Below, piece after piece: positions 20,441 to 64,000 of a DNA stretch of 64,000 nucleotides; positions within the stretch are counted from its first letter, which is position 1, and each line of letters starts with the position of its first letter. Source of the stretch: an uncultured delta proteobacterium (GTDB lineage Bacteria > Desulfobacterota > Desulfomonilia > Desulfomonilales > Desulfomonilaceae); the NCBI GenBank assembly GCA_963789265.1, contig CAWBKB010000001.1, forward strand, positions 1,440,001 to 1,504,000, written 5' to 3'. Both the position numbers and the translations under genes were made by a program. The notes below the pieces were generated by a model. That model saw only the letters and a program-made list of their open reading frames with translations. It had not been told where the DNA came from and did not search any database.

Positions 20441-20739
20441 TAGAATTTGATATAAGCGCCCCCACATACTTTTGGGGGAGGCAGGAGATGGGTGGAGTTA
20501 CGTCGGCGCTGCCGCATCTTTCGGAATTCGAGCTTACCTTTGTTTTGCAGGTCAACGATTCGTGCTTTGAGGGTCGGAACTTCATCCGAGGGTTCAACAC
20601 CCACTGATTCCTTCTTTTGGTCTTTACCAGGAACGGAAGGCTCATGAATGCCCGAACCAGCTTTGGATTTTTCAGGCTTAGGTTTGTCAGATTCCGCGGC
20701 AGCCGCAATCAAAGGACTAACCGAGAATATCAGAGCCAA

Positions 20740-21283
20740 AGCCTATCTAAGGCGTATGACGCTCTTTGCCGTGAATACGGGTTGCCGTGATCAAGAAATC
20801 TGCAAGTTGAAATGGGACTGGGAGGTTAACATTCCCGAGCTGCGGACAACTGTATTCATAATTCCTAAAGAGAAGGTCAAGAATCGGGAAGACCGGCCTG
20901 TAGTACTGAACTCCATTGCTGGATCGGTTGTAGAGGAAGTGAGGGGTATCCACGAAGAGTATGTGTTCACTTATAAAGGGAAGCCTCTCCAAAGGATTTA
21001 CAATCGGGCATGGAGACAGGCACGAGAGAGGGCAGGGCTTCCCCAGGTTCGTGTGCATGACCTAAAGCACACCTATGGCCGACGGCTTCGAGCTATGGGG
21101 GTGAGTTTCGAGGACAGACAGGACCTTCTTGGCCACAAGTCGAATAGGGTGACGACTCATTATTCCGCACCTGAGTTGATCAATTTGCTGCAAGCTTCGG
21201 AGAGGGTTTGCAGTCAGGACTGGCACAAATCCGGCACAATGGTCATCCTGAAAAAGAAACCCCGCCTTGCCGTGGTGGGCTAA
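20740..21283 (+). pseudogene. Tyrosine recombinase/integrase, C-terminal catalytic fragment (N-terminus lost)
   Basis: TGCRDQE, VHDLKH, LLGH, TTHY. The upstream part of the listed ORF is antisense to an unrelated secreted-protein fragment. Confidence 0.88.
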
Positions 21284-27677: not shown

Positions 27678-28376
27678 TTATCTCCCGAATCGAACCCTCA
27701 GCCAAGTGAACCGCTTCTGTGTCTTGTCGTTCTTCACGGCAATAGCCAAAGCTTTTTTACTGCCCACGACGATCGCCAGTCTCTTTCCCCTCGTGATCGC
27801 AGTGTACAAGAGGTTTCTTTGCAGCAGGATGTAGTGCTGGGTCAGGAGAGGAATCACCACGCAAGGGTATTCGGAGCCCTGCGCCTTGTGAACCGAGACA
27901 GCATAAGCCAGGACCAACTCGTCCAGGTCTGAGTAATCATAGACCACGGATCGCCCATCGAACGTGATCGTCAGCTCCTGCATTTCAGTCTCAATCCGAA
28001 TGATTCGCCCAATGTCCCCGTTGAAGACCTCCTTGTCGTAGTTGTTCCTGATCTGCATCACCTTGTCATCGAACCGGAAGTTCCTGCCGCCCCTCGTTAC
28101 CCCGTCCTCTCTCGGATTGAGAGCCTTCTGAAGCTCGACATTGAGGTTGGTTGTTCCAACCAAGCCCCGATTCATCGGAGTCAGGATATGAACCTCGTCA
28201 ATCGGATCGAATCCGAACGCGTTTCTGATTCTACTGCCGACGAAATCCAAAATTATTCGGAGCGCTACTTCCGGCTCCGTCTTCTCGATGAAATAGAAAT
28301 CGTTCCTTCCCTCGGCATTGGGCTGAAGTCGAGGCATCAAGCCGCTGTTGATGCGACGAGCATTCACGATGATGTC
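27678..28376 (-). pseudogene. C-terminal fragment of RecD2-like helicase
   Basis: DKVMQIRNNYDKEVFNGDIG, LAYAVSVHKAQGSEY, RNLLYTAITR; Walker A region absent. Confidence 0.85.
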
Positions 28377-28910
28377 GGGGTCGCGGCCCCGGCATGCTAC
28401 CGCACGGACGGGGAAATCGGGCTATAGGGGGGTGAGTGGCGGGGCATCACACCGAACTGTTTCAACGGGTGGGGAACAATACCCCAACGGTCTCACTATC
28501 CATGAATCACGAAAATCCCCTGGTTTTGAACAAAGGTTCCGTCAATTCGGTTTGAATCTGATGCGATACTGTTTCTCGTTTCGAGGGACGATCTCAACAG
28601 GCCCGAGAGTCCATCTCCTTCCCGTAGAGCATCTAACGACATGCCTGTCCGCCGTTATCCAAATTCCTACTCGGTTAATAAAGTTTTTGGCACGACAATT
28701 GCTAGATGCCGCGTTCACGCGTGACACTCTGGCGGAGGGTCAACTCCGCCGAATTGGACGCTTAAGCCAAGACGAGGTGGGTCCATTTGGATTACATTAA
28801 GGAACGGTACACCTCAGGCTCCATCAAATAGTTCTCGAAAAGAGCCTTTTTGAAGTATCGACGTTCGACCAGAGTAAGAGACAAACACCTTCTCTCTGGG
28901 AGAGAAATCC

Positions 28911-29159
28911 ATGAGCAAACGTCACCTTGTGAAGATGCCGATGTTTTCGACAAGGGATCTTCCGGCTATAGTCCGCAAGTGGTACAAGAACTCAGGCGAG
29001 TGGGTCTCTCTCGGCGATCAACTGTGCGTTGTTGAAACGCGAAAGGCCGCTTACGACGTGGTCTCCGACGGCGAGGGCTTCTTAACCCAAATCGTTCCGG
29101 TGGGGGCTGTTGTGCGGGTGGGATACACTTTAGCCGAGTTGAGTTCACAAATGGAGTAA
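28911..29159 (+). CDS. Stand-alone lipoyl/biotinyl-domain protein
   Basis: KW....GE.V..GD.L..VET.KA...V.S...G.L..I lipoyl pattern. Confidence 0.65.
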   Translation: MSKRHLVKMPMFSTRDLPAIVRKWYKNSGEWVSLGDQLCVVETRKAAYDVVSDGEGFLTQIVPVGAVVRVGYTLAELSSQME

Positions 29160-29791
29160 ATCTCATGCTCGCCGGTTGCCAGGTGGGTGCGGGTCAGTTG
29201 ACGAAACTGATCATTTACCTTGATGATGATTCAAGGGATTCCGTAGCAATATTCTTTCCCCACAAAGATCAGATTGTCCGGGGGCTTGAAACTGCCGCCC
29301 AAGCCAGATTCAAGAACAAATGGGACTCAAGTAAGGGGAGGGAAAGAGAACGCGCAAATTGTCTCAGGCTCGTCTCCGATGGCAACCGCCGTCCTGGATC
29401 GGATTAGAGAGAGATCGTGTCTTTACCAGGAATGAGCGAAGGATTCTCGGCAGAGAAGAAGATACCCATTCTGCTCATCCTCCCGGCAGATATTCCCCAA
29501 AAAAGATCCCCATGAGTTTTGTCCGTTTTCTTTCGCAAGGCTTATTCTGCGTCTCTATTTGCGCTGACTCCACAATCCCTTTCGGAATTTATTCCCGAAC
29601 ACCCTGGTCATTTTTTTGTGGCCCTGAAAGTCTTTGCATAGACTGCGCTGCGGCTGCTTAAGGTTGATGGGGTTGGCGACAAGAGCCTTCCACCAATTCG
29701 GAGGGCATTCCTTACAAAAATGATAATTGACATTCTTCATGTTCCAGAGCAAACTTATCGACAACGATGCCATTTTAGGGAGGGAGTTGGA

Positions 29792-29998
29792 ATGAGCGGT
29801 AAAAATTATTGGGAGGCAAAGAACTGTCCCCCAGAAACCAAAGCCAAGTGTCCGGCATATCCAGACCACGGGCGAGACTGTTGGCTAGTAGCAGGAACCT
29901 TTTGCCGGGGAAAGCAACAAGGGACTCCGATGGAAAAGAGGGAGTTCTGCTTGTTTGATTGTGGGTTTCCAGAAGCAGTCGCAAGAGGTGAAGAATGA
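29792..29998 (+). CDS. Small Cys/Trp-rich (two-CW-type) protein
   Basis: NYWEAKNC...CPAY...GRDCWLVAGTFC...C..C; GGAG RBS. Confidence 0.7.
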   Translation: MSGKNYWEAKNCPPETKAKCPAYPDHGRDCWLVAGTFCRGKQQGTPMEKREFCLFDCGFPEAVARGEE

Positions 29999-30017
29999 GC
30001 CGGATGCGTCAAACGGC

Positions 30018-30311
30018 TCCCGACAATAGAGATAGAGTTCAAGGAATAGCGCTCTATAAGGGAGGCGATTCTGCCCAGGACAGCCATCACGGAACCCTCA
30101 AGTTCAGGCAACCGGCAACGGTGAGCGCAAACGTGACTCAGTAACCACCCTGAGCTGGGACACCCTAAACGGTGCATTGCCTCTCTGAGGTATCCCCGAC
30201 AGCCTTGTGAAAAAGAAGGTGTCTCCGCGAGCCTGAACCTCCCGAAAGGGAGTCGTGAGAGGTAGCGTCTCCGGCGAGAGTCGGCGGGGTTGTCGGGAGA
30301 TGCCAAATCCC
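30018..30311 (+). ncRNA. Candidate structured ncRNA of unknown family, copy A
   Basis: Highly similar to 50725-51017 with compensatory changes and GNRA tetraloops (see findings). Confidence 0.75.
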
Positions 30312-30561
30312 TCGGCCCATTTGGCGTGAATTATGTGGAACATTCAATGTGTTGTAGTCTTCTCTGCCGCTGACCGACGATGCAATCTAACCTCGTCGTC
30401 GGATTCTTTATAGCTTCTGCCCGCCGGTCGTATACCTGAAGACCAGGGTCGCAAAATGTTGATGTCCGTCCGAGCGTTTTCAACATAGGCAGGGCGCGAC
30501 GGCATTTGCACAAGCACCAATCCGTTCTGACGCGAAACGAGCCGTGGATTGCATTCGCGAA

Positions 30562-30870
30562 TCAGGCTTGTGGACTCGCTCCTTCCACAAACATAAGTCG
30601 CCTTTCCAGGGCTGCGTCGCGAAACTTCAGCGCTTCCGCGTATTCGGGAGACTCGTACCACTTGCGAATTTGCTCCATTGAGGAAAATTCTACGATAACG
30701 ACTCGGCGTGGGATTGGCTCGCCCTCGACTACTATAGCCTCTGCTGCTCGCGCAAGATAACGGCCACCGTAGGTTGCAATGGAAGCCGCTGCAAGCTGAC
30801 GATATTGGTTTGCAGCATCCTCGTTGATGATTTCGACCTCGGAGATAACGAAAGCACTCATGTGAGCCAC
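30562..30870 (-). CDS. DUF1330 family protein
   Basis: YGGRYLAR, VEG, RVVIVEF, WYESPEY. Confidence 0.85.
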   Translation of the reverse strand: MAHMSAFVISEVEIINEDAANQYRQLAAASIATYGGRYLARAAEAIVVEGEPIPRRVVIVEFSSMEQIRKWYESPEYAEALKFRDAALERRLMFVEGASPQA

Positions 30871-31098
30871 TCCTTAGAGGAAATGCAGGGCGTCAGTCCG
30901 GGAGCACACTGAGTAATCAGGCGGTCATGACGCCCAATGTTGAACTTCAACGGCTTCCGCAAGCCAGAGTGACACCGGAAAGCTCCATTTCTGGGCATTC
31001 CGGCTCATACAATGTAGGGCAGTTTACTTGCAGGAAACTCCCCGTTACCGATAGGAACAAGGCTCGTTGTAAATTGTTTAGCGTCGCATGGCACGCGT

Positions 31099-31542
31099 CT
31101 ACCATTTGCGGTACGACAGGAACTTTCCGTTGTAAGTGACGACAACCCGGTCGCCCTTTGGATCTGTCTTTTTCTGAATATCGATCTCGAAATCAATGGC
31201 ACTCATGATGCCGTCACCGAACATCTCGTGAATAATCTCCTTCATGGTCGTCCCATACACCTGGGTGATCTCGTGAAAGCGATACACGAGAGGATCAACG
31301 GGAACCGTAGCGTCAAGAGACCCCTTCATCGGACACTCCTGGAGCACCTCGGCCACTGACTTATCCAGGCCCAGAACCGCTGCTGACTTTTCAGCCAGCT
31401 CCGGGGGCATGCTGTTTTGGCCGAGCAAGGCTGAGGTCACCCAGACCGTATGGCTACCGACCTTTTCGGCAATTTGCTCCCAGGTCAATCCCTTTTCCTT
31501 CTTGGCTGCTCGGATTTTTTCGGTGGCTTCTTTCCTTGTCAT
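31099..31542 (-). CDS. cynS: Cyanase (cyanate hydratase)
   Basis: DPLVYRFHE, IHEMFGDGIMSAIDF, RVVVTYNGKFL. Confidence 0.95.
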   Translation of the reverse strand: MTRKEATEKIRAAKKEKGLTWEQIAEKVGSHTVWVTSALLGQNSMPPELAEKSAAVLGLDKSVAEVLQECPMKGSLDATVPVDPLVYRFHEITQVYGTTMKEIIHEMFGDGIMSAIDFEIDIQKKTDPKGDRVVVTYNGKFLSYRKW

Positions 31543-31584
31543 GTCGGGTCTCCCGTTTCTTAGGTGTGATGTCAGCCGAAATTA

Positions 31585-31600
31585 TGCGGCTATCTTGCCA
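31585..31600 (-). promoter_or_regulatory. Possible sigma-54 promoter of cynS
   Basis: TGGCAAGATAGCCGCA has GG-N10-GC, but the -12 element is imperfect. Confidence 0.35.
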
Positions 31601-32069
31601 TTTTGAGGTCTTCGGGACGATAACGGAGCGAGGGATGGTACCCGGAAGCCTGAAGAGGTTGCCGTATTTCCTCCCACTAGTCCCGACAGAGGTAAAACCG
31701 CCGTCACTTTGCTGAAAAAGGATCTTATATTGACGTCTAAACATAGCCTACTGCTCAGGCCACGGTCAAACTAATTTTTGCTGAACAGCCTCGATAACGA
31801 GCAAAACAAGATATCGCTCATAAGGCACCGGAGAACGATTCTCCGCGATCATCTGATTCGGGGTATGCTGACGTATTCAAAAATTCCGTCCGCGCGTCTA
31901 CCGCGTTCTGATTGCGCGAAATTGTCAAAATTCGGTGCCTGCAGTCATGACCATCTCACGTGAGATTGCGATTGACTGAGGGGGTGGGACCAGGTAAGCT
32001 CCAGGTCTCCCGATCCCAGGGGTTTCGAGCCCCATGTGGAAGGCGTAATGCTGGTCAGCGGAGTGAGTT

Positions 32070-32846
32070 ATGTGGGAAGCCATTGTGGCACAAGTGCTAA
32101 AAACATTGGGCAACTACGCTTGGCGTTTAGTTGGAGCCCTAATCATCATCCTCGTAGGCTTCTGGCTAGCAAAATTGATCAGGAAGACTCTAATGCGGGC
32201 ACTCACAACTCGAAAACTTGACCCTACGGTTATCTATTTTTCGGACAGCAGCCTTCAGGTTCTCCTGTATGGTGTGATTCTCATTGCAGCGCTCCACAGA
32301 TTGGGAGTTGAAACTACCTCCCTAGTGGCGATGCTTGGAGCTGCCGGTCTTGCCATTGGGTTTGCTCTGAGACAACAAATGTCAAACGTTGCATCAGGTC
32401 TGCTTATCATCATTTTCCGACCATTCAGGGTGGGAGATTACATTGACGGTGGGGGCTCCGCGGGCACAGTCGAGAAGATCGAATTGATGTCCACCGAGGT
32501 TCTCACACCAGAAAACGTTACCGTAATCATACCCAATTCGAAGCTGACAGCGGACAAGGTCATCAACTACTCCCGTCGGGATACCCGCCGACTGAGAATA
32601 GTAATCGGAGTGACCTATAAGGCTGATCTCAAGGCCATCAGAGATGCTCTGCAAAAAATCGTTGAGGGAGAGGATCTGATCCTGAAGGACCCGCCGCCAA
32701 CCATCACTATAAAGGAGCTTGGGGACAAGGGGATAAAGATTGAAATCAGAATGTGGGTAAAATCTGAGGATTATTTGAAAGCCAAGGTCCAATTGAACGA
32801 GAAGATTAAAGAACGATATGATTCTGAAGAAATCCCATTCCCTTAA
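32070..32846 (+). CDS. mscS: Small-conductance mechanosensitive channel
   Basis: Three TM segments, GAAGLAIGFAL, RPFRVGD, IPNS. Confidence 0.92.
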   Translation: MWEAIVAQVLKTLGNYAWRLVGALIIILVGFWLAKLIRKTLMRALTTRKLDPTVIYFSDSSLQVLLYGVILIAALHRLGVETTSLVAMLGAAGLAIGFALRQQMSNVASGLLIIIFRPFRVGDYIDGGGSAGTVEKIELMSTEVLTPENVTVIIPNSKLTADKVINYSRRDTRRLRIVIGVTYKADLKAIRDALQKIVEGEDLILKDPPPTITIKELGDKGIKIEIRMWVKSEDYLKAKVQLNEKIKERYDSEEIPFP

Positions 32847-33380
32847 TCTGCGGTTAAGGCCAGGGACTATGCGCATGAATGTCTTGTCCAGCTTCTTCCT
32901 GTTGTCCTGAACAGCCACCAGATTATGTGCCACTTGTTAAGGTAGAGGTATAGTGCCTTGATCTCCTGGTAGAGGGAAAGGATTTCCGGGTGTAGTGCCG
33001 GCGATCCAGGTTGTAAATATGGCCTCAGGAGTGGGTGGGCGATACCTTGATACGGCCATACTCTTTCCTCCACTTATAAGTACTGCCAAGCCGTGTTCGA
33101 GTAAGGATGGCGAGGACATGTTGGCTTATGGAAGCGCCATTTAGGTGCTCCTTTCTCGATGTATTCTGTTTGTGCCTAAGATATAGAGCGCCCCCGCTTG
33201 GGCACGCCTATCACCCTACGCCAAGCATGCACCGAATTAGCAGCTCCAGGATAACGTAGAGCCACCGCATCGCCTCCAGCGTGACCACGATGCAGTCCAT
33301 GAAAATTCCCATTTGTCTTACTCCTCTTCATTGCGGCGGCAGGGTTCACCCCACGACCCCTTGCGGGGCCGCTCGGGTGT

Positions 33381-33479
33381 TCACTTACGCGCCTTTTTTG
33401 ATTTCTTCGTTGTTTCTATAAATATCTCTGCCGCAGCCACCAGCAACGCGAACAAGAAGTTGACCACTGCTCGCTTCAT
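33381..33479 (-). CDS. 32-aa hydrophobic peptide with basic tail
   Basis: AAGGAGG RBS; MKRAVVNFLFALLVAAAEIFIETTKKSKKARK; paralogue at 34492-34617. Confidence 0.6.
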   Translation of the reverse strand: MKRAVVNFLFALLVAAAEIFIETTKKSKKARK

Positions 33480-33871
33480 TGTCGGCTCCTCCTTTCCGCA
33501 CATGCGTCTTCTATTCCCTTCATGATTGCCCCACTAACCCCTCAATTTTAAGAAGGGGAAAGAACAGAAGAAGAAAGCGGAAAGGACGATCAATTCTATT
33601 CCTCGGCCTGGTTGATGATATGAGCGCTTCATGGCAAAGCTCAAGCTTATGAGGCATTTCTTTTGATCCGGCCATTCCCCTCAATAGAGACCCACTTACC
33701 GTGAAATGTAGAACACCGGATTATTACCGTGAGGAGGTTCACCGTTCTCCTGGCACACACAACGGCCCTATGTGCCAATAATGCTTGATTTATGGGTGGC
33801 AGCACCTTATTGTATCGCTCGTTTCAAGAAACTAGTGACGAGGTAATGGCGAGGCAAGAGAAATGAAAATG

Positions 33872-34347
33872 ATGGACATAAGAGAGAAAATCCTGAAGGA
33901 ACTGGACAATAAACCCGGCGACACGTTTCCGTATCGGCAATTGCTCGTGCCATAGGCTCGAACAACAAAGGAACGAATGCAGCTTTGGGCAAGCTTTTTA
34001 AAGCAGGTCTTATTGCGCGGCTGCAGAAAGGAGTCTATTCGAGCAAGGCCCGCTCTCCAAAACCAACAGCAGTCCCCGAACCTCTAAGACCGAGAAAAAC
34101 AGCAACAACGGCAAAGGCTGCTAAACCCGTCCCCGAGCCTGCCGAACTTACCCCGGCGCCGACCTCCCCGCTCTCTATAATTACACTCGATCTCCTCGTC
34201 GAAGGAGAACAATCCAAAATAGATGCGAGCGGATTTCTGGGGAAGGTCCTTGAAAATAGGTCTGTCCTCGATGCACGGGTGAGTCAAATAACGGCCGCAG
34301 ATCAAACGAAGCTCAAGATACGGTTTTCATTTCCAGACGATGAATAG
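33872..34347 (+). pseudogene. Winged-helix-like hypothetical protein, frameshift at ~33925
   Basis: MDIREKILKELDNKPGDT joins VSVSAIARAIG...LGKLFKAGLIARLQKGVY with a one-base correction. Confidence 0.5.
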
Positions 34348-34467
34348 CACAGATATTCGACGTATTCCGGAGTGCCCTTGATTCAATCGAATCCCTGTCT
34401 AGGATCTCGACGGCGGCCCGAGTGATGCTCTGCGGTATTCGTGTACACACCTCCTCTCTTTGATCAG

Positions 34468-34536
34468 GGATATCCCTCAAGGATTTTCCCACTAGACCCT
34501 CAAATATAGAGAAGAGGGGAAGATGCAGGCGGGAGC
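34468..34536 (+). repeat. ~70-bp direct repeat, copy 1
   Basis: Near-identical to 35946-36015. Confidence 0.85.
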
Positions 34537-48749: not shown

Positions 48750-49364
48750 TCGAGTACTTTCACGTACCTCGACTAATATTGCGAGTTCCTTTATCAGTGA
48801 ATCATATTCTACCTGGACTTTATCGGTGTAGCTCGAAGCAGATCTAATCACCCACATGCAACTCTATGAAAGGACGTCTCTTTCCGATAGTCAGATAACC
48901 AGAGCATTTGTCGAGTCGGAGAAAGCCATAGCGGAGCTGGATTAGATCACTTTCACGTTCCGGATGACGGGGAGCGTACTCAATTTAACTCTCCCGACGT
49001 CGGGAAAGTTCCGTCGGACGGGGTTTTCAGACGGGGCGAATTGAAAAAAATTAAGCCCTTCATTTTCAACAAGCGCCCCTTAATGGAGGATGAATCGTTT
49101 GTCTCTGGTCGTGCATCAAATACTCCAAGAGCCGAACGTTCGGAGGTGTGTACGATTAGGGGAGGTAAGTTCTCAATACCGTTCGTTTCTAATACATATG
49201 ATTCAGAAGATTTGAAGTTGAATGCTGCTTTGGCCTTAGGTTAAGGAGAATTCGATACTGCCCTGAATCATGGTAAAGATAAGAAATTTGTATAAAGACG
49301 CTGGAAGGACCAATGAGAACCAATGTAAGACGACAATCCTCTTCGATCATACTTCTCGGAGGAC

Positions 49365-50072
49365 ATGGAAATGAAAAACTTAAGCAAAGTAGGTATTGGC
49401 ACAATCCCCCTTCTATTACTTCTATTTGTGATTTCAGGAGTTGCTAGAAGTGAAGAGGTGCCTGCGATTCCAGCAGGTGCTAAGGCTTTCGTAGCCAAGG
49501 TTTCGGCAAATAGGAACTGTCTATTAGTACGTAGCCAGGCTGGCGAGTCTTCAAGAGTGGTCGGCTGTCTTCCGCGATGTAAGAAAGTAACACTGACAGG
49601 TAATTCAAACGATATATGGGTACAGATGTCTGCCCCCATATCTGGCTGGGTCAATGGGTTGTTCTTAGATCCTAATCCAAGAATATGTAATTTAGGGTCA
49701 TATGCCGGGGTAGCTCCATATGATGGCCCAGATCCCAGCCTGTATCCAGAGGACTATTTTGACTGGTGGAGTTCTCCTAGATGGGCTTGGTACTGGCCTT
49801 GGTGGTGGCATTACAGACACAATCGATACCATTTCTTCGCCCATCATCATCCTCGGAAACATCACGGTCACTACAAATATGTCCATGTTGGGCACCATCC
49901 GGCTCACCATGCTGTACGCCATCTTGAAAAACCTCACCAGGGGGGAAAACACGGTGGTAACAAATTCGCTAGACCTCACCATGGTGCCAAGAGATCCGCT
50001 GTGCATCACCATCGTGGTGGATTCCATAGAGCCGCTGGCCATGGTGGAAGACATGGTGAAAGACACCGATGA
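49365..50072 (+). CDS. Secreted SH3b-like protein with Trp-rich segment and His-rich tail
   Basis: Signal peptide; LLVRS...VG.L...V.L....WVQ....GWV; His-rich C-terminus. Confidence 0.7.
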   Translation: MEMKNLSKVGIGTIPLLLLLFVISGVARSEEVPAIPAGAKAFVAKVSANRNCLLVRSQAGESSRVVGCLPRCKKVTLTGNSNDIWVQMSAPISGWVNGLFLDPNPRICNLGSYAGVAPYDGPDPSLYPEDYFDWWSSPRWAWYWPWWWHYRHNRYHFFAHHHPRKHHGHYKYVHVGHHPAHHAVRHLEKPHQGGKHGGNKFARPHHGAKRSAVHHHRGGFHRAAGHGGRHGERHR

Positions 50073-50724
50073 GCTAGTTTAATCAACCGAATCTGATGGG
50101 ATAGCATCTTCTGGGATTAAACGGCGCTTTAGGTTGGTCCTGAGCAGCCGACGATAGAGATGACCTGGTGGTGGATTCGTTCCTCGGATCTGGCACAATT
50201 GCGCTCGCTTGTCAAAGACTCAATCGAAGGATCGTCCGTCCCTTCTCGAAACGAGTATGAACGTGATGCATTCCCCGTCCTGTGATCCCGAAACAGTGAT
50301 AGACTATGCCCGTGGACATGACTTCCTCGCCTTCTCAGATTCGTTACAAAGCCAAGAAGGCAGGAAATCATGTCCTTTTTCACTTTTCAACTAAGGTACA
50401 CACTTACGCGAAGATCCGGAATTAAGAAACTACAATCATAGAAGAGTTAATCAAAATGCACCAGAATTATAAGTGGTTGCATCAGAAACAATTGCTCTCT
50501 CAGTTGGAGAGATGGGGAAAAAATATTCAAGACCGCATCGAATGGCAACGTAAGAAAATTGACGAAGAACCGACGTCAGAGGAGGACGACAAATCCGTCA
50601 AGGAACCTCAATACCGAGAGCCTCTGGACTTGCTGAAAAGGAAATTACATAAAATGGCTAGATATGATTACTGACGTGATAAATTCAATCGTCTACGAAC
50701 CTCTTTGCTTGATAAAGGGCCTGA

Positions 50725-51017
50725 TCCCGACACCCGAAATGGTCTTTGCAACCGTTGCACAAAAGGGAGGCGATTCTGCCCAGGACAGAAATCACGGAAC
50801 CCTCAGGTTCAGGCAACCGGCAACGGTGAGTAAAAACGTGACCGGGTAATCACAACCCCCGGCCGGGACACCGTAAGGTGCATTGCCTCTTTTGGGTATC
50901 CCCCGGTAACCTTGAGAAAAAGAAGGCATCTCTCACGAAGCGTGAATCTCGGAAAGAGTCGTGAGAGGTAGCGTCTCCGGCGAAAGTCGGCGAGGTTATG
51001 AAGGATACCCAAATTCC
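50725..51017 (+). ncRNA. Candidate structured ncRNA of unknown family, copy B
   Basis: Paralogue of 30018-30311 with covarying stems. Confidence 0.75.
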
Positions 51018-51042
51018 ACAGACCCATTACCTGACCGTCAAT

Positions 51043-52155
51043 TTATTTCCTTATCTGCCCCGACGGTTCGTATGAATCCCCCGGACCGACCCCGTAGAAA
51101 AATACGACAAGTCGGTAGGGAGGCACGAAATCTCTCTTGTAAAACTCATAGACCGTGGGGCTGATTTTCTTGGGTTTGCCGGAAAAGCAAAGAGATATGA
51201 TCTCATCGGGGGTTTCTTTTTCGATCCGCAAGGTAAACGTTCCTATAGGCCCTTTCCAGTTCCGGCCGGTGCCCAGGATATACTCGACATTCTTCACGTT
51301 AAAATCCACTATCTCGGCACCTTTGGCAGCGAGGTCTTCGAGGTTCTTAGCTATTGCCTGCCTTGTTCGCTGGTCCAGACATGCCTCATGTCTACCGTGA
51401 TCAGCGAACCAGTGCGGTGTGGGTACCGGTACATGGCGATAAACTTTTTGATAGTCCTCAGATAAGTAGCCGAACTCCTTGTTATAGGCATTGCCGCCGT
51501 AAGTTCCGACGACTGGGTTGTAAGAAATCTCTACAACGGTTTCTTTTCCCGCAGGAAAGGTCTGCTCCTAAAATGCCGTTTCGGCGACCTCTAAGTCACT
51601 TATTTGCTTTCCCTTAGCCCAAATGAGATTGTATACAGCATTTTCTTGATCTTTCGTGAGATCAGCCTCATCAGCTTTACCAAAGATTTGTTTGTCGAAC
51701 AAACCGAGTTTCCTTAGCTGAGCCGTCACATCGTGATCAACAACTACGGCCTTGCGAACGACTCCTGGTGCTACCGAACGGCCATCTACCCAAACCTTAA
51801 AAGTTGCCATAATAAACGCAGAACCATCAGCATCCGGAAGCCAGGGACGGGGAGCTACAGGAAATGCGACCGTTGTTTTTATGTCTTTGAGAGATTCGTT
51901 TCGGAAGCGAAATTTAGCTCGTACTGCTTTTGTGGAAATCTCCAAAATCTCTTCGAGCAATCGGATGTCTGCACTCTTGGTGAAGGTGATTCCGCCTGCG
52001 CCAAGACGAGCGGTTGTTTCGTTGGAGAAAGCCTCAGTTGCCGATACCAATGTCGCTGTAACAATTATCAGTTCAGCGAGAAACACTCGAAAGAAAAGGT
52101 GCGTCACGTCGATAATTCTGGAGGTGTTCACAAAGGCCAAGCGATGATCTTTCAT
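51043..52155 (-). pseudogene. DUF4424-like secreted protein with in-frame TAG at 51568-51570
   Basis: ORFs 51568-52155 and 51043-51309 share a frame; NETTARLGAGG, F*EQTFPAG, YILGTGRNWKGPIG. Confidence 0.7.
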
Positions 52156-53498: not shown

Positions 53499-54446
53499 AT
53501 GAATCTAGCAGAACTTACAAAGATGACGGAAGCACAAGCTAGAGAATTTCTTGAGGAAGTTCGCTGGCACGGAAATCCTACTTGTCCTCACTGCGGGGGG
53601 ACTGACGCGTATCAACTCCGTGGAAGCGCAACGCGCCCCGGTGTTTGGAAGTGTTCGGCTTGTCGTAAGCAGTTTACTGTGACTGTGGGGACGGTCATGC
53701 ATCGCTCTCATCTCCCTCTTCGTACGTGGGTTATCGCTTTCCATCTTATGTCTTCCTCTAAGAAGGGAATTTCTGCCCTACAACTTCAAAGAGTCTTGGG
53801 AATTGTTAACTATAAGAATGCTTGGCATCTAGCTCATAGAATAAGGCTTGCAATGACAGAGGGCTTAGGAGTCTTCCCCTTGAAGGGAACCGTTGAAGTA
53901 GATGAGACTTATGTTGGGGGCAAGCCGAGAAAAGAGAGCAAGGGCAGCTCAGAGAAGCCAAAGAAAAAGTCTAAGCGTGGTCGTGGGACTGATAAGACTC
54001 CTGTGCTAGCTTTGGTAGAGAGAAACGGTAACGTAGTCTCTAAGCCCATAGAAAGAGTTAATGCTTCTACCCTCAAAGGTGCTATCAAGGAAATGGTTCA
54101 CAAAGATTCTTGTATCATGACCGACGAATGGTCTTCTTACACTGGTATTGGTGAGCATTTCAATGGTGGTCATGAAGTAGTGAAACACAATGACGGTGAG
54201 TTTGTCAGAGGAAATGCGAGCACCAATACGGTAGAATCTTACTTCGCACTGTTGAAGAGAGGCGTCCACGGAGCATTCCATCACGTGTCTAAGACACACT
54301 TACACAGATACTGCGATGAATTTTCTTTCAGGTGGAATCATAGAAAGATTGACGACGGTGAGAGGACAGTTTGCATTATTCAGGGTATAGGTGGAAAGAG
54401 GCTTGTATATGCTGATTGCAGGGGATTAATACATGAGCACAACTAA
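53499..54446 (+). CDS. IS1595-family transposase
   Basis: Zn ribbon CPHC..CSAC, SSKKGISALQL, VEVDETYVGG, IMTDE, NTVE, RYCDEFSFRWN. Confidence 0.93.
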   Translation: MNLAELTKMTEAQAREFLEEVRWHGNPTCPHCGGTDAYQLRGSATRPGVWKCSACRKQFTVTVGTVMHRSHLPLRTWVIAFHLMSSSKKGISALQLQRVLGIVNYKNAWHLAHRIRLAMTEGLGVFPLKGTVEVDETYVGGKPRKESKGSSEKPKKKSKRGRGTDKTPVLALVERNGNVVSKPIERVNASTLKGAIKEMVHKDSCIMTDEWSSYTGIGEHFNGGHEVVKHNDGEFVRGNASTNTVESYFALLKRGVHGAFHHVSKTHLHRYCDEFSFRWNHRKIDDGERTVCIIQGIGGKRLVYADCRGLIHEHN

Positions 54447-55842
54447 TGCTGAGCTTGAGGAATGGATGAGAGTACCCCGCGAGGGTGTTCTAGAGTTCAA
54501 GGCGGCAAGGAACCAGTATGACCGCGAAAAGGTGTATGGTTATAGTGTGGCAATTGCGAATGAAGGTGGGGGCAAACTCATTCTTGGTGTGAGTGATTCA
54601 CTTCCTCGTCAGGTGGTTGGAAGTAATGCGTTTCGCAACATAGGTAAGATTACTCAACAGCTTTTTACAAAGCTTCCCTTTCAGGTAGATGTGGAAGAAT
54701 TGCCACATCCAGACGGACGTGTAGTGATATTTCACATACCTGCCCGACCTATAGGTACTCCTTATGAGCTTGACGGAAAATTTCTAATGCGCGTGGGTGA
54801 ATCTCTAGTTCCGATGTCTTCGGACCGTCTCCGACAAATATTGGATGAGGGTAAACCTGACTGGTTTTCTGAGGAGGCTAAGAACGAATGTTCATCAGAT
54901 GATGTAATACAATTGTTAGATGTTCAGAGCTATTTTGACTTAACGAAAACATCGCTTCCAACAACGCGCGATGCTATTCTGGACCGATTTGAACAGGAGA
55001 GTTTGATTCTACGAAAGGGAGAATTCTGGGCAATAACCAACTTGGGGGCTATCCTCTTTGCTAAGAATTTAGAGCACTTCGTTTCTACTTCTCGTAAAGC
55101 TCCGAGAGTGATTGTGTATCCTGGAGTTGATAAGACGGATACCGCTCGTATTGATGAATTCAAGAAAAAAGGATACGCCGCTGGTTTTGAGTCTCTCATA
55201 GACTTTATCAATGGACAGATTCCAACAAATCCAACTATTCTCAAAATCTTGCGCGACGAAAAGAAAATGTTTCCTGAGATTGCTATACGCGAGGTTATAG
55301 CAAACGCCCTTATTCATCAAGATCTTACAGAAACAGGCATGTTTGTAATGGTGGAACTTTACTCAGACCGACTGGAAATCTCAAATCCTGGGGCACCGGC
55401 TATCCCGCCCGAACGATTTATTGATGGGTACAAAGCACGTAATGAGCGGTTAGCGGACCTAATGCGGCGTATGGGCATTTGCGAAGAAAGAGGTAGTGGA
55501 ATAGACAAAGTCATTCGTTGGGTGGAAGTATATCAACTGCCTGCTCCTGTTTTCCGAGACGGTCAGCAGGATACCCAAGTAATTCTGTTCTCGCACAAAG
55601 AGTTTGAGGATATGGACCGCTCTGACCGCATTCGAGCCTGCTACCAACACTGCTGCCTGCGCTATGTCATGACAAAAGGTATGACTAATCAGAGTTTGCG
55701 TAAAAGATTTGATCTAGATAAGAATCAGACACATGCAGTCTCTCGAATTATTGCGGCAACAGTCCAAGAAGGACGAATCAAATTGGCTGATACGGGGACG
55801 ACCTCAACCCGATACACTAAATATATTCCATCATGGGCTTGA
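54433..55842 (+). CDS. AlbA_2/Schlafen-like domain + HATPase_c_4 protein
   Basis: LEFK...AIANEGGG.LILGV.D; REVIANALIH, SNPG, RN..LA..M...G..E.RGSG. Confidence 0.85.
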   Translation: MSTTNAELEEWMRVPREGVLEFKAARNQYDREKVYGYSVAIANEGGGKLILGVSDSLPRQVVGSNAFRNIGKITQQLFTKLPFQVDVEELPHPDGRVVIFHIPARPIGTPYELDGKFLMRVGESLVPMSSDRLRQILDEGKPDWFSEEAKNECSSDDVIQLLDVQSYFDLTKTSLPTTRDAILDRFEQESLILRKGEFWAITNLGAILFAKNLEHFVSTSRKAPRVIVYPGVDKTDTARIDEFKKKGYAAGFESLIDFINGQIPTNPTILKILRDEKKMFPEIAIREVIANALIHQDLTETGMFVMVELYSDRLEISNPGAPAIPPERFIDGYKARNERLADLMRRMGICEERGSGIDKVIRWVEVYQLPAPVFRDGQQDTQVILFSHKEFEDMDRSDRIRACYQHCCLRYVMTKGMTNQSLRKRFDLDKNQTHAVSRIIAATVQEGRIKLADTGTTSTRYTKYIPSWA

Positions 55843-62295: not shown

Positions 62296-62896
62296 GTTCG
62301 TTCCTCTCCTCCTTACTTTGGGCTCATACTCTAGTTTTGTTTCTTCTCAGATCGCTTCCCAATAATCTTGATCTCCTCTATGTTGGGTACCAGCCGACTC
62401 TTATACACACGCGCAGAGGTACTCCAGACAAAAGTCTTCTTGTTGACAGGCTCGTAAATGTTAGTCTCGGAGCGTTCCGGCAACGGATAGAGTACCGGTT
62501 ACTAAAACTAAGGTGACAATGACTAAACGGCTCATGCCCACACTCCCATTCATTGCAAATAGAAACAGCCCCTCGAAGTTTGTTTCGTCTCCGATTCTCG
62601 GATCGTCCCCAAAGCCCCAGCCACCCGAAAAGAAGATTTGGCTGCCCCTGGTTAGGTGATTTTTCCGTAGGCTGATTATTCTATTGGACGATGCGAGGTT
62701 AATGTTGTTAAAAGAAATCTTTTTGAACTTTGTTCGTCTCATAGTATCGGAGACCTCTTAACAGCATGACAGATTTACTACCCAGTGTTGTTTTTCACAT
62801 TAAATTGACTGATTTTTTCTGATTATTTGGGACAGAGCGCCTAGTTTTTCAGATTGTTTTGACTGGGCCGGGTGGTCCGGCCCGGTGATAGGTTGT

Positions 62897-63706
62897 TCAA
62901 AAGATTTCGGTAGCTGCGAGTCTGACGTGATCTGCGGTGACGATGGTGGATTGGTTGTTTGCCGCTGCGACGAGAGCGCCTCTTGCCAGATGGTTAGCCT
63001 TCCTGAATGTTCCTCCTGAGCCTTGATGGATTGCGGTGATCGCAGCGTCGTCAAAGAGGCTGGATTTGACGCCTGTGAGAGAGAGATGGTGAGAGAGGTA
63101 CTGTTCCATCTCCTGCCTGCTGACCGGCTCCATATGGCTGCGTGCGACGATTCGTGACGCGAGCGGAGCGGAGGTTTGATACATGAGCTTGTCGATGAGG
63201 TTGCTCCGCCCGGTCAGGACAATAGGCAACCACGGTTTTGAGTCAGCCTCGAAGACGGTGATGGTGTGGATCTCGGCAAAGACCTCCAGACGCATCAACG
63301 ATGCCTCATCGACCACCAGCACGATCTTCATCTTCTTTTCCAGGATCACTTCCCGTACTGCCTTCTTGATAAGGCGCACCATGATGGCTTTCTGTGATCC
63401 CGCCATGTGAATACCGAATTCAGCGAGGAAGAGCCGATAAAACTCCAGAATGGAGCCTGAGCAGGCAGTGATCCACACGGTCTTGTATTCGGATGGGTGG
63501 AGCTTTGAGATGACGTACCTGAGAGCCGTGGACTTTCCCGATCCCACCTCGCCGGTGAGGGTCGCAATAGCTCCCAACCTGACCGTATAGTCAAAGCGCT
63601 CTTTGATTGCTGCAATGTCTTGGGTTTCCAGAATGTCCTTGATGTTTATGTCGGTGGGGAACGCCTCCCGGCTCATGCCGAAGAAAGATCGATAGTTGGT
63701 GCTCAT
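62897..63706 (-). CDS. ExeA-like AAA ATPase (transposition helper)
   Basis: GEVGSGKST, VVDEA; ATGA overlap with the transposase. Confidence 0.88.
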   Translation of the reverse strand: MSTNYRSFFGMSREAFPTDINIKDILETQDIAAIKERFDYTVRLGAIATLTGEVGSGKSTALRYVISKLHPSEYKTVWITACSGSILEFYRLFLAEFGIHMAGSQKAIMVRLIKKAVREVILEKKMKIVLVVDEASLMRLEVFAEIHTITVFEADSKPWLPIVLTGRSNLIDKLMYQTSAPLASRIVARSHMEPVSRQEMEQYLSHHLSLTGVKSSLFDDAAITAIHQGSGGTFRKANHLARGALVAAANNQSTIVTADHVRLAATEIF

Positions 63707-64000
63707 GTACGGTCCTTCTTTCCCCAAAGACTTCCACCTTGGTATTTTTCTGCCTCCTCGGAGGATTGAAGCTCTATATTTCGCCACTTGTCCCGTTTCA
63801 CCCGGCTATTGACGTGGATATTTACTGGGGCAGCCATGCCGAAAGAGACTCCGCCGAGCATGATCTCGACCTGATCCGGCTCTTGTTCGTGATATAGAAG
63901 GGCGACTTGTTTGCCTATGAGGGGGACAGGCGCTTCAAAGATCCTTCCGTCCAAGCTTATGGTCCTGTCTTTTGCTACTCTTCGTCGCACGGTCTTGCGA
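63703..64000 (-). CDS. DDE transposase, Mu-like C-terminal domain (partial, runs off the right edge)
   Basis: RRVAKDRTISLDG..FEAP..LIGKQV; coupled to the AAA gene. Possible element end at the TGT at 62786. Confidence 0.8.
   Translation of the reverse strand, partial: RKTVRRRVAKDRTISLDGRIFEAPVPLIGKQVALLYHEQEPDQVEIMLGGVSFGMAAPVNIHVNSRVKRDKWRNIELQSSEEAEKYQGGSLWGKKDRT

Follow-up and report, generated by a model that had tools for sequence, protein, structure and literature searches.

A two-domain structured RNA absent from Rfam that occurs as diverged paralogues in genomes of the family Desulfomonilaceae

Few large bacterial RNAs combine an intricate, strongly covarying fold with the lack of a known function; about a dozen such classes are known, and several of them later proved to be ribozymes, partners of RNA-guided nucleases or self-assembling RNA cages. 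Here we describe an RNA element found in a 64-kb stretch of DNA from an uncultured delta proteobacterium (positions 1440001–1504000 of contig C1 of its genome, G000, which is 95.6% complete; "the window" below means this whole stretch), where it is present as copy A at 30017–30307 and copy B at 50724–51013, both on the + strand. Among described systems HEARO RNA (RF02033), the omega-RNA of IscB, is about 300 nucleotides (nt) long, pseudoknotted and multi-helical, and some of its copies lack a partner gene. Our element resembles it in being a large, apparently pseudoknotted, multi-helix RNA with several copies per genome and a patchy distribution in mobile or variable DNA, but it has no covariance model (CM) match even at E ≤ 10, it adjoins no iscB, isrB or tnpB gene, and its upstream sequence falls into a small number of conserved hairpin types instead of forming a unique guide for every copy. 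OLE, ROOL, GOLLD and raiA are complex, multi-domain, covarying RNAs, of which ROOL and GOLLD travel with mobile DNA. The element shares with these a multi-domain fold, strong covariation and the lack of a known biochemical role; it differs from them in having no model match, in being much shorter than OLE, ROOL and GOLLD, and in occurring as several diverged paralogues per genome within one family, with none in the phage and plasmid records searched.

Two further groups of sequences are similar in position. REP/BIME repeats are short palindromes of high copy number that are associated with RAYT transposases, and they, like the ERIC, Correia and RUP repeats, occupy gaps between convergent genes and gene 3' ends as part of the neighbouring mRNA (as the element presumably does), with a possible role in protecting or insulating that mRNA. 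Each of these repeats consists of a short, simple palindrome present tens to hundreds of times in nearly identical form, whereas the element has 250 nt, 12 helices, an apparent pseudoknot and few copies; a REP/BIME identity was rejected on the five full copies in this genome, which are 70–84% alike, and on a flanking palindrome that occurs only about three times in G000. CpxQ and SroC are short RNAs that act by Hfq-dependent base pairing, each present as a single copy and linked to one gene; the element is like them in that it would come from an mRNA 3' end, have no promoter of its own and be released by processing, and unlike them in that it is large, folds autonomously and accompanies many unrelated genes.

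Copies A and B lie where an earlier reading of these letters without database searches (the sequence-only reading) had placed them, and they align from end to end with 82.9% identity over 240 nt (BLAST, E = 1e-59), a similarity far above chance. Long blocks of the core are nearly identical and the divergence is confined to places with compensating changes; conserved tails continue beyond the core, to about 30330 in A and 51058 in B. The element had been thought to be present twice, but this was an undercount. The RNA query gives 10 BLAST matches in G000, exclusively to RNA copies, and these comprise five different full-length copies (A, B, C at about 1522.4 kb and D at about 1515.3 kb of contig C1, and F at about 118.4 kb of contig C8), a duplicate called A2 on contig C5, and the fragments E, which retains the 5' 120 nt, and G, H and I, which retain the 3' 85–100 nt. 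In total the genome has about five fragments of the element. A2 is identical to A and is within a 6.8-kb segment (C5:414832–421638) that is 99.1% identical, in inverted orientation, to window positions 27696–34496, copy A included; the two segments result either from a recent segmental duplication or from the merging of a second strain into the bin, whose contamination is estimated at 6%.

The sequence-only reading could match the element to no family, and the databases agree. None of the 4227 models of Rfam 15 matches the 64-kb window at the gathering threshold; at E ≤ 10 there is no + strand match for copy A or B, the sole match inside the element being a chance one to mir-373 on the − strand (15–16 bits against a threshold of 69), and 17 further loci gave no match at E ≤ 5. 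A tRNA/tmRNA scan of 29000–52000 found none, and neither a structured RNA described for Desulfomonile nor the element's conserved words were found in the searchable literature. An open reading frame (ORF) on the − strand that overlaps copy A (29806–30306) is spurious. The concern that homologues might turn out to be ends of an insertion sequence (IS) or remnants of coding sequence was not borne out, as no recognisable IS end or coding remnant was found in those checked. We conclude that the RNA family is real, absent from Rfam 15 and the searchable literature, structured, non-coding and on the + strand. Its core is about 250 nt, or about 300–340 nt with the variable hairpin modules that form a 5' leader and a 3' trailer.

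The structure was derived by hand from a MAFFT alignment of 14 sequences that was not fitted to any structure. It consists of 12 helices in two closed multi-helix domains, P1–P7 and P8–P12, whose covariation is significant, and so agrees with the large multi-junction non-coding RNA proposed at the outset. Two half covariance models were made, R2 for domain 1 and R1 for domain 2. Domain 1 (30058–30187 in copy A, R2 134.1 bits; 50763–50893 in copy B, 133.4 bits) is closed by P1 (GGGAGGCGAT/ATTGCCTCTC, 30060–30069/30176–30185), inside which P2 (30074–30078/30155–30159; CCCAG/CTGGG in A, CGTAG/CTACG in D) encloses P3 (TCACG/CGTGA, 30087–30091/30132–30136) and P6 (30137–30141/30150–30154; CTCAG/CTGAG in A, CCGGG/CCCGG in B). 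P3 in turn holds P4 (30097–30100/30122–30125; CTCA/TGAG in some copies, TGGG/CCCA in others) and P5 (ACCG-GCAA-CGGT, 30112–30114/30119–30121), and P2 is followed by P7 (CACC/GGTG, 30161–30164/30171–30174). Domain 2 (30189–30307 in A, R1 112.1 bits; 50893–51012 in B, 101.5 bits) is closed by the long, 19-bp P8 (30189–30207/30285–30304), the middle of which is an internal loop in B. P8 closes an A-rich internal loop (30208–30216), P9 (30217–30220/30267–30270), P10 (30222–30230/30253–30262), which holds the P11 hairpin (CTC(CC)/(GG)GAG, 30239–30243/30248–30252), and P12 (CCGGC-GNRA-GTCGG, 30271–30275/30280–30284). Invariant nucleotides occur at the junctions, namely GGAAC, the A-rich GAAAAAGAAGG loop and GGUAU. 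Eight of these helices (P1, P3, P5, P6, P7, P8, P11 and P12) had been named from the two copies in the window, and all of them are present and covary; P2, P4, P9 and P10 are additional. A GAAC/GTTC hairpin proposed for domain 1 is unsupported and was dropped, because its loop would hold the 5' strand of the strongly covarying P4.

Several measures support this fold. In the MAFFT alignment (82 pairs) 90.2% of 1111 cells are standard pairs, against 35.9–42.9% when the 3' partners are slid by one to three columns, and changes on both sides are seen in 27 of the 82 pairs against 8–13 when slid; on four of five measures the observed value was reached by none of 500 shuffles. The two CM alignments, which are fitted to the models and hence biased towards them, give 87.8% paired cells for domain 1 (45 sequences; 30.5–40.1% slid, double changes in 26 of 33 pairs) and 91.7% for domain 2 (66 sequences; 35.4–42.3% slid, double changes in 28 of 37 pairs). 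Single pairs rotate among three or four Watson–Crick types; one pair in P6, for example, is A-U in 15 sequences, C-G in 12 and G-C in 12. Helices have thus been kept by compensatory changes in old, diverged paralogues, and therefore selection acts on the RNA fold; the + strand two-domain structure is under purifying selection. Alternation between Watson–Crick and G-U pairs is common, and some pairs are mostly G-U, which on the opposite strand would be A-C mismatches. The + strand of copy A folds at −107.4 kcal/mol (z = −4.03, with none of 200 dinucleotide shuffles as good), while the − strand has z = −0.60. The G-U pairs and the folding energy both favour the + strand, the strand that the sequence-only reading had chosen.

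A nearly invariant 8-bp loop–loop pairing appears to join the two domains, between the strand that follows P4 and the strand that precedes P11 (GUUCAGGC/GCCUGAAC). In copy A the strands are GTTCAGGC (30102–30109, +) and GCCTGAAC (30231–30238, +), and in copy B, where 7 of the 8 pairs form, they are 50807–50814 and 50940–50947 (+, the 3' strand being GCGTGAAT). The proposal of a cross-domain pseudoknot holds up in so far as the pairing is there, in 322 of 336 cells across 42 full copies; true compensatory change was not forthcoming, with a single double change. Nearly all of the variation is of the wobble type (A-U to G-U in 19 copies, C-G to U-G in 4 and U-A to U-G in 3), and for this reason we regard the pseudoknot as conserved and consistent, and not as proven.

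The core is flanked by modules that recur in non-orthologous copies. The 40–45 nt before P1 fall into a few types, each with one or two hairpins. In copy A the leader (30017–30057, +) contains a variable hairpin, ATAGAG...CTCTAT. Leader type L1 is found in copies B, D and E and in several metagenome copies, and ends 1–2 nt before P1 with the near-palindrome CTGCAAC-N-GTTGCAG; in copy B (50724–50762, +) it has two small hairpins, the second of which is this near-palindrome (TTGCAACCGTTGCAC, 2 nt before P1). On the other side of the core, trailer type T1 begins TTCCTCGATCC. Copy B has a diverged T1, ATTCCACAGACC, in a trailer at 51013–51058 (+, ATTCCACAGACCCATTACCTGACCGTCAATTTATTTCC...) that abuts the stop codon of a fragment of a convergent DUF4424 gene (51043–51309, −). 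The trailer of copy A (30308–30330, +, TCCCTCGGCCCATT...) is conserved and likewise common to non-orthologous copies; it begins with TCCCTCGGCC, which is related to T1. The palindrome of L1 also ends T1 in 5 of 64 copies, 41–44 nt past P8, and it is present in 6 of 42 leaders; it is otherwise rare, with about three occurrences in G000, all in leaders, and 0–3 in each of five relatives. Leader L1 resembles a shortened T1, and to judge from this likeness the units could once have stood in tandem, or the modules could be processing or recognition sites. Inspection by eye found no consistent complementarity between leader and trailer or between trailer and the GGAAC junction.

Among the genomes searched the element is limited to one bacterial family, the Desulfomonilaceae. 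BLAST found it in 7 of 61 genomes, G000 included. R1 matches 13 of the 70 genomes of the order, all in the one family and with 0–14 matches per genome, and none of 150 other genomes sampled evenly across the phylum. Seven of the 80 loci listed from named genome records match R1, the other 73 being chance pattern matches, and these seven records are titled Desulfomonilaceae bacteria (five) or "uncultured delta proteobacterium" (two); the titles of the records that carry the element fit the lineage, Desulfobacterota, that had been guessed for the window. A stricter pattern gave 41 metagenome loci, of which 25 match R1. Plasmid and phage collections gave no BLAST match, and a pattern scan of viral contigs gave one pattern-only match, in a metagenome-assembled genome (MAG) of a giant virus, that is probably due to chance.

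The copies within G000 are only 70–84% alike, and for most copies the nearest relative is in another genome (74–90%, with the R1 and R2 alignments joined). No near-identical copies were found at different sites, the sole identical pair (A and A2) being that in the 6.8-kb segmental duplication. Two sites are kept between species of the genus, one at which a glyoxalase gene precedes the RNA (copy F; one copy in the relative G005) and one at which a convergent DUF4424 gene lies downstream of it (copy B; one copy in G005). These comparisons argue that the paralogues are old, each having retained its fold, and do not reflect a recent burst of transposition; since near-identical copies are lacking, the evidence speaks against recent mobility.

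The genes around the element are diverse. Copy A begins 19 nt past the stop codon of a gene for a 92-amino acid (aa) cysteine-rich protein with two CW domains (29720–29998, +; NCBIfam NF045718, 37.2 bits, cut-off 35), and is followed by a convergent DUF1330 gene (30562–30870, −) and, beyond it, a cyanate lyase gene (31099–31542, −), both identified with Pfam. The survey of neighbouring genes suggested by the sequence-only reading turned up mainly accessory functions, including glyoxalase (6 loci), DUF4424, DUF1330 with cyanase, CMD, SDR, FMN reductase, EamA, TauE, chromate transporter, ABM, GNAT, CBAH, and ankyrin and Sel1 proteins, as well as sensor kinases, transposases and gene fragments; no nuclease, recombinase or reverse transcriptase is consistently adjacent among the copies examined. 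In many copies the leader begins 2–84 nt past a stop codon. By a crude rule (greedy longest ORFs of at least 90 aa, nearest within 500 nt), which for copy A wrongly picked a spurious ORF over the confirmed two-CW-domain gene and was applied to partly orthologous, non-independent loci, 22 of 30 copies have their nearest upstream ORF on the same strand; of 27 nearest downstream ORFs, 20 are convergent and 7 share the strand of the element. Scans for promoter and terminator consensus sequences around A and B found nothing on the + strand, and a search of 44 upstream regions for sigma-70 and sigma-54 motifs, by eye and by regular expression, gave one weak hit.

An accessory gene for an IHF/HU-like protein recurs 0.2–1.3 kb upstream on the same strand, at at least 10 copies in 9 loci (L037, L038, L067, L208, L225, L240, L272, which has two such copies, L273 and L274), and is usually separated from the RNA by one variable gene. 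No genome of the order lacks an IHF-alpha-like gene, and where the RNA is abundant extra IHF paralogues tend to be numerous (14 in a genome with 14 RNA matches, 10 in one with 7); one genome has 8 IHF paralogues and no RNA. In several loci the sequence directly before the RNA encodes a small protein, or an N-terminal domain, that carries the motif ..DI..G..D..LM.KYGL...GL...F.+L and is weakly DUF433-like (E = 0.0035, below the cut-off). At L272 (G080:C87:1–8500) there are three modules of about 2.3–2.5 kb in tandem, two of which end with the RNA, one of these with domain 1 only; units 1 and 2 start with a − strand fragment of an SRAP (SOS-response peptidase) gene followed by the IHF-like gene, and unit 3 starts with the IHF-like gene, with no SRAP fragment seen before it.

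The reading we prefer, tentatively and at a little less than even confidence, is that the element is a functional RNA module at the 3' end of island operons, acting as a transcript-end module, as the RNA of a small ribonucleoprotein (RNP), or as both. According to this proposal, which is drawn from sequence and gene order, the RNA would have no promoter of its own and would be made by read-through as the 3'-terminal part of the transcript of the upstream gene or operon, often an accessory IHF/HU-like gene plus one variable gene, and it would perhaps be trimmed or cut out at the flanking hairpin modules. It would be a self-contained 3'-end module of horizontally acquired island operons, which would cap the transcript and insulate it against the convergent neighbour, and it would probably also form the RNA part of an RNP with small nucleic-acid-binding proteins encoded nearby. 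A number of points weigh against this proposal. Twelve helices, a pseudoknot and invariant junctions are more than a simple terminator or stabiliser would require. No protein family adjoins all copies; only roughly one copy in five has an IHF-like gene nearby, and none in G000 does. The upstream neighbour is on the opposite strand in 8 of 30 copies, and all of the orientation counts have the shortcomings given above. Several copies are truncated at either end, as is expected of decaying selfish DNA, and the pseudoknot's single true double change is equalled by 60 of 2000 shuffles.

The most serious rival, which we consider possible but less than likely, is a mobile or cassette-shuffling RNA (a guide, bridge, intron-like or non-autonomous element) that would move or recombine accessory genes by means of a protein supplied in trans. 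In its favour, the element is multicopy and patchy (0–14 matches per genome, 13 of 70 genomes), and the copies cluster in islands with transposases (IS481, IS66, IS21 and IS1595-like), gene fragments and defence-type genes. Truncated copies occur, with about seven that have the 3' 85–100 nt only and about five that have a 5' part only, and some cores are bracketed by related modules with the rare palindrome. The element also lies at a synteny break: in the RNA-free relative G002 a 105-aa gene and its terminal hairpin are shared with RNA-bearing genomes, the similarity stops about 20 nt before the leader, and other sequence and an apparent convergent tRNA gene follow, so that synteny breaks at the element's 5' edge, after the end hairpin of the upstream gene. 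This break is one-sided; no clean empty site was found, and RNA-free relatives offer no usable counterpart of either the F locus or the DUF4424 locus. (In an alignment of the G002 locus read by eye, L252:1050–1400 on contig C15, an apparent terminator hairpin and the 3' end of an opposite-strand tRNA are seen.) Against mobility stand the lack of near-identical copies at different sites and the stability of the orthologous copies across species; moreover, no target duplications or inverted ends were seen, and no candidate protein partner was found next to a copy.

These candidate partners were considered in turn. The omega-RNA of tnpB overlaps the 3' end of that gene, and the ends of IS200/IS605 elements carry hairpins that are recognised by the Y1 transposase; no tnpB was found in G000 (PF07282, no match), and its six Y1_Tnp genes have neither the element's flanking hairpin nor its CCTCGAT motif nearby. 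The omega-RNAs of iscB and isrB lie directly upstream of these genes inside IS200/IS605-type elements; no such ORF is beside any copy examined, and the best match to NF040563 (43 bits against a cut-off of 175, an HNH match) is on contig C6, far from the copies. In IS110/IS1111 elements the bridge (seek) RNA is in the non-coding element end next to the DEDD recombinase gene; five IS110-type genes are present in G000 and none is adjacent to a copy, the nearest being about 55 kb from copy A. Group II introns have a six-domain fold with a domain V and use an intron-encoded or trans-acting reverse transcriptase, and those of class C insert after terminators. The position after a gene-end hairpin is the sole resemblance of the element to class C introns; there is no Rfam intron match, 250–340 nt is too short, and no reverse transcriptase gene is seen beside any copy. 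Integron attC sites are imperfect palindromes of 57–141 nt at cassette ends, found with an integron integrase; TIGR02249 reaches no more than 82 bits (cut-off 265), the element is a nested multi-helix fold of 250–340 nt, and its neighbours are not uniformly oriented. A tRNA-like integration-site model fails in that the 3' fragments are not downstream of an intact copy, as that model requires. Finally, the 403-aa ORF upstream of copy D is not a nuclease; it encodes a membrane protein.

A large ribozyme, self-cleaving or otherwise catalytic, that processes itself or the 3' end of the upstream transcript seems unlikely, and it would be compatible with both the 3'-end module and a mobile RNA. Its size and complexity, the invariant unpaired junction nucleotides and the conserved pseudoknot fit such a function, as do the scattered, multicopy and context-independent distribution that is typical of self-cleaving classes and the position, which suggests that it is located inside longer transcripts and not behind its own promoter. 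It matches no Rfam ribozyme family, however, and we could not infer a candidate cleavage site. A bolder proposal, itself doubtful, is that the RNA is the core of a new RNP or ribozyme system of genomic-island operons. It might be a large catalytic RNA that processes or marks the 3' ends of acquired operons; or it might, together with the linked IHF/HU-like and small helix-turn-helix proteins, direct the capture and reshuffling of accessory cassettes without TnpB, IscB, an IS110 recombinase or a reverse transcriptase.

Riboswitches are 5' leaders on the same strand as the genes they control, and these downstream genes are functionally coherent. The sequence-only reading had disfavoured a riboswitch, rightly it appears: the downstream genes are mutually unrelated, and the orientation counts (convergent in 20 of 27) are opposite to those expected of a cis-acting leader. 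The same convergence could be turned in favour of a riboswitch-like sensor, in which a 3' platform would control read-through antisense to the convergent gene, and in some copies the trailer TCCCTCG can, as read from the sequences, pair with the P8 3' strand CGGGGGA in an alternative hairpin. We find this improbable. The convergent genes (DUF4424, DUF1330, SDR, EamA, ABM, chromate transporter, ankyrin and Sel1) are functionally unrelated, the trailers are of several unrelated types, no promoter of its own was found, and an aptamer of 250 nt would be unusually large. A function at the level of DNA, for instance as a recombination site made of folded single strands or as a region bound by proteins, is very improbable despite the recurrence of IHF-like genes and the palindromic motif in the flanking modules, as covariation maintains, on one strand only, a nested 12-helix fold rich in G-U (G-T) pairs, the folding energy is asymmetric between strands, and double-stranded protein-binding sites do not covary in this way.

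Other features of the window and of related loci were noted along the way. The convergent DUF4424 gene beside copy B is broken into a pair of ORFs (51043–51309 and 51568–52155, −), each of which matches one end of the profile, and is probably a pseudogene (51043–52155); G005 has two intact tandem DUF4424 genes at the matching site. Upstream of copy B, 800 nt at 49358–50160 are 93.5% identical to C1:2415333–2416135 and contain a 235-aa ORF (49365–50072) without a family match; this is an unclassified repeat or small mobile element. About 2.5 kb from copy B there are defence-type and mobile genes, an IS1595-family transposase gene (53499–54446) followed by a gene with Schlafen/AlbA_2 and HATPase_c_4 domains (54433–55842). 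The end of the window (62786–64000) is 100% identical, inverted, to C1:2491874–2493088 and is probably part of a repeated element; an ORF in it (62897–63787, −) resembles the AAA ATPase associated with XrtA/PEP-CTERM. At 20648–21283 (+) is a 211-aa tyrosine-recombinase-like ORF (a weak XerA/integrase match, E = 5e-10), which sits between a − strand metabolic operon (1–20.7 kb; oxoprolinase/urea-carboxylase-like genes, an ABC transporter and a sigma-54 activator) and the variable region that bears the RNA; this may be an island boundary. The duplicated segment that includes copy A contains a fragment of a RecD-like helicase gene with only the C-terminal SH3_13 and UvrD_C_2 domains (27678–28367, −). 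Upstream of the glyoxalase gene of copy F, a 60–70-nt stretch (L014:9760–9826, on contig C8) recurs at numerous sites in four related genomes (76–97% identity); it has no relation to the RNA and could be a piece of a widespread repeat or of a conserved coding motif.

RNA family databases should list this element, as the stretches that encode it are otherwise read as empty intergenic DNA or as spurious ORFs. A core of about 250 nt is small enough for direct structural and biochemical work, and more than 60 natural variants are at hand for the analysis of covariation. The element has an unusual genomic position: it is found at the 3' tail of accessory operons with a convergent gene opposite, and an additional IHF/HU-like gene often precedes it. 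Action in cis would make it a new means by which acquired genes bring along a transcript-end module of their own; action in trans, or catalysis, would make it a new RNA machine.

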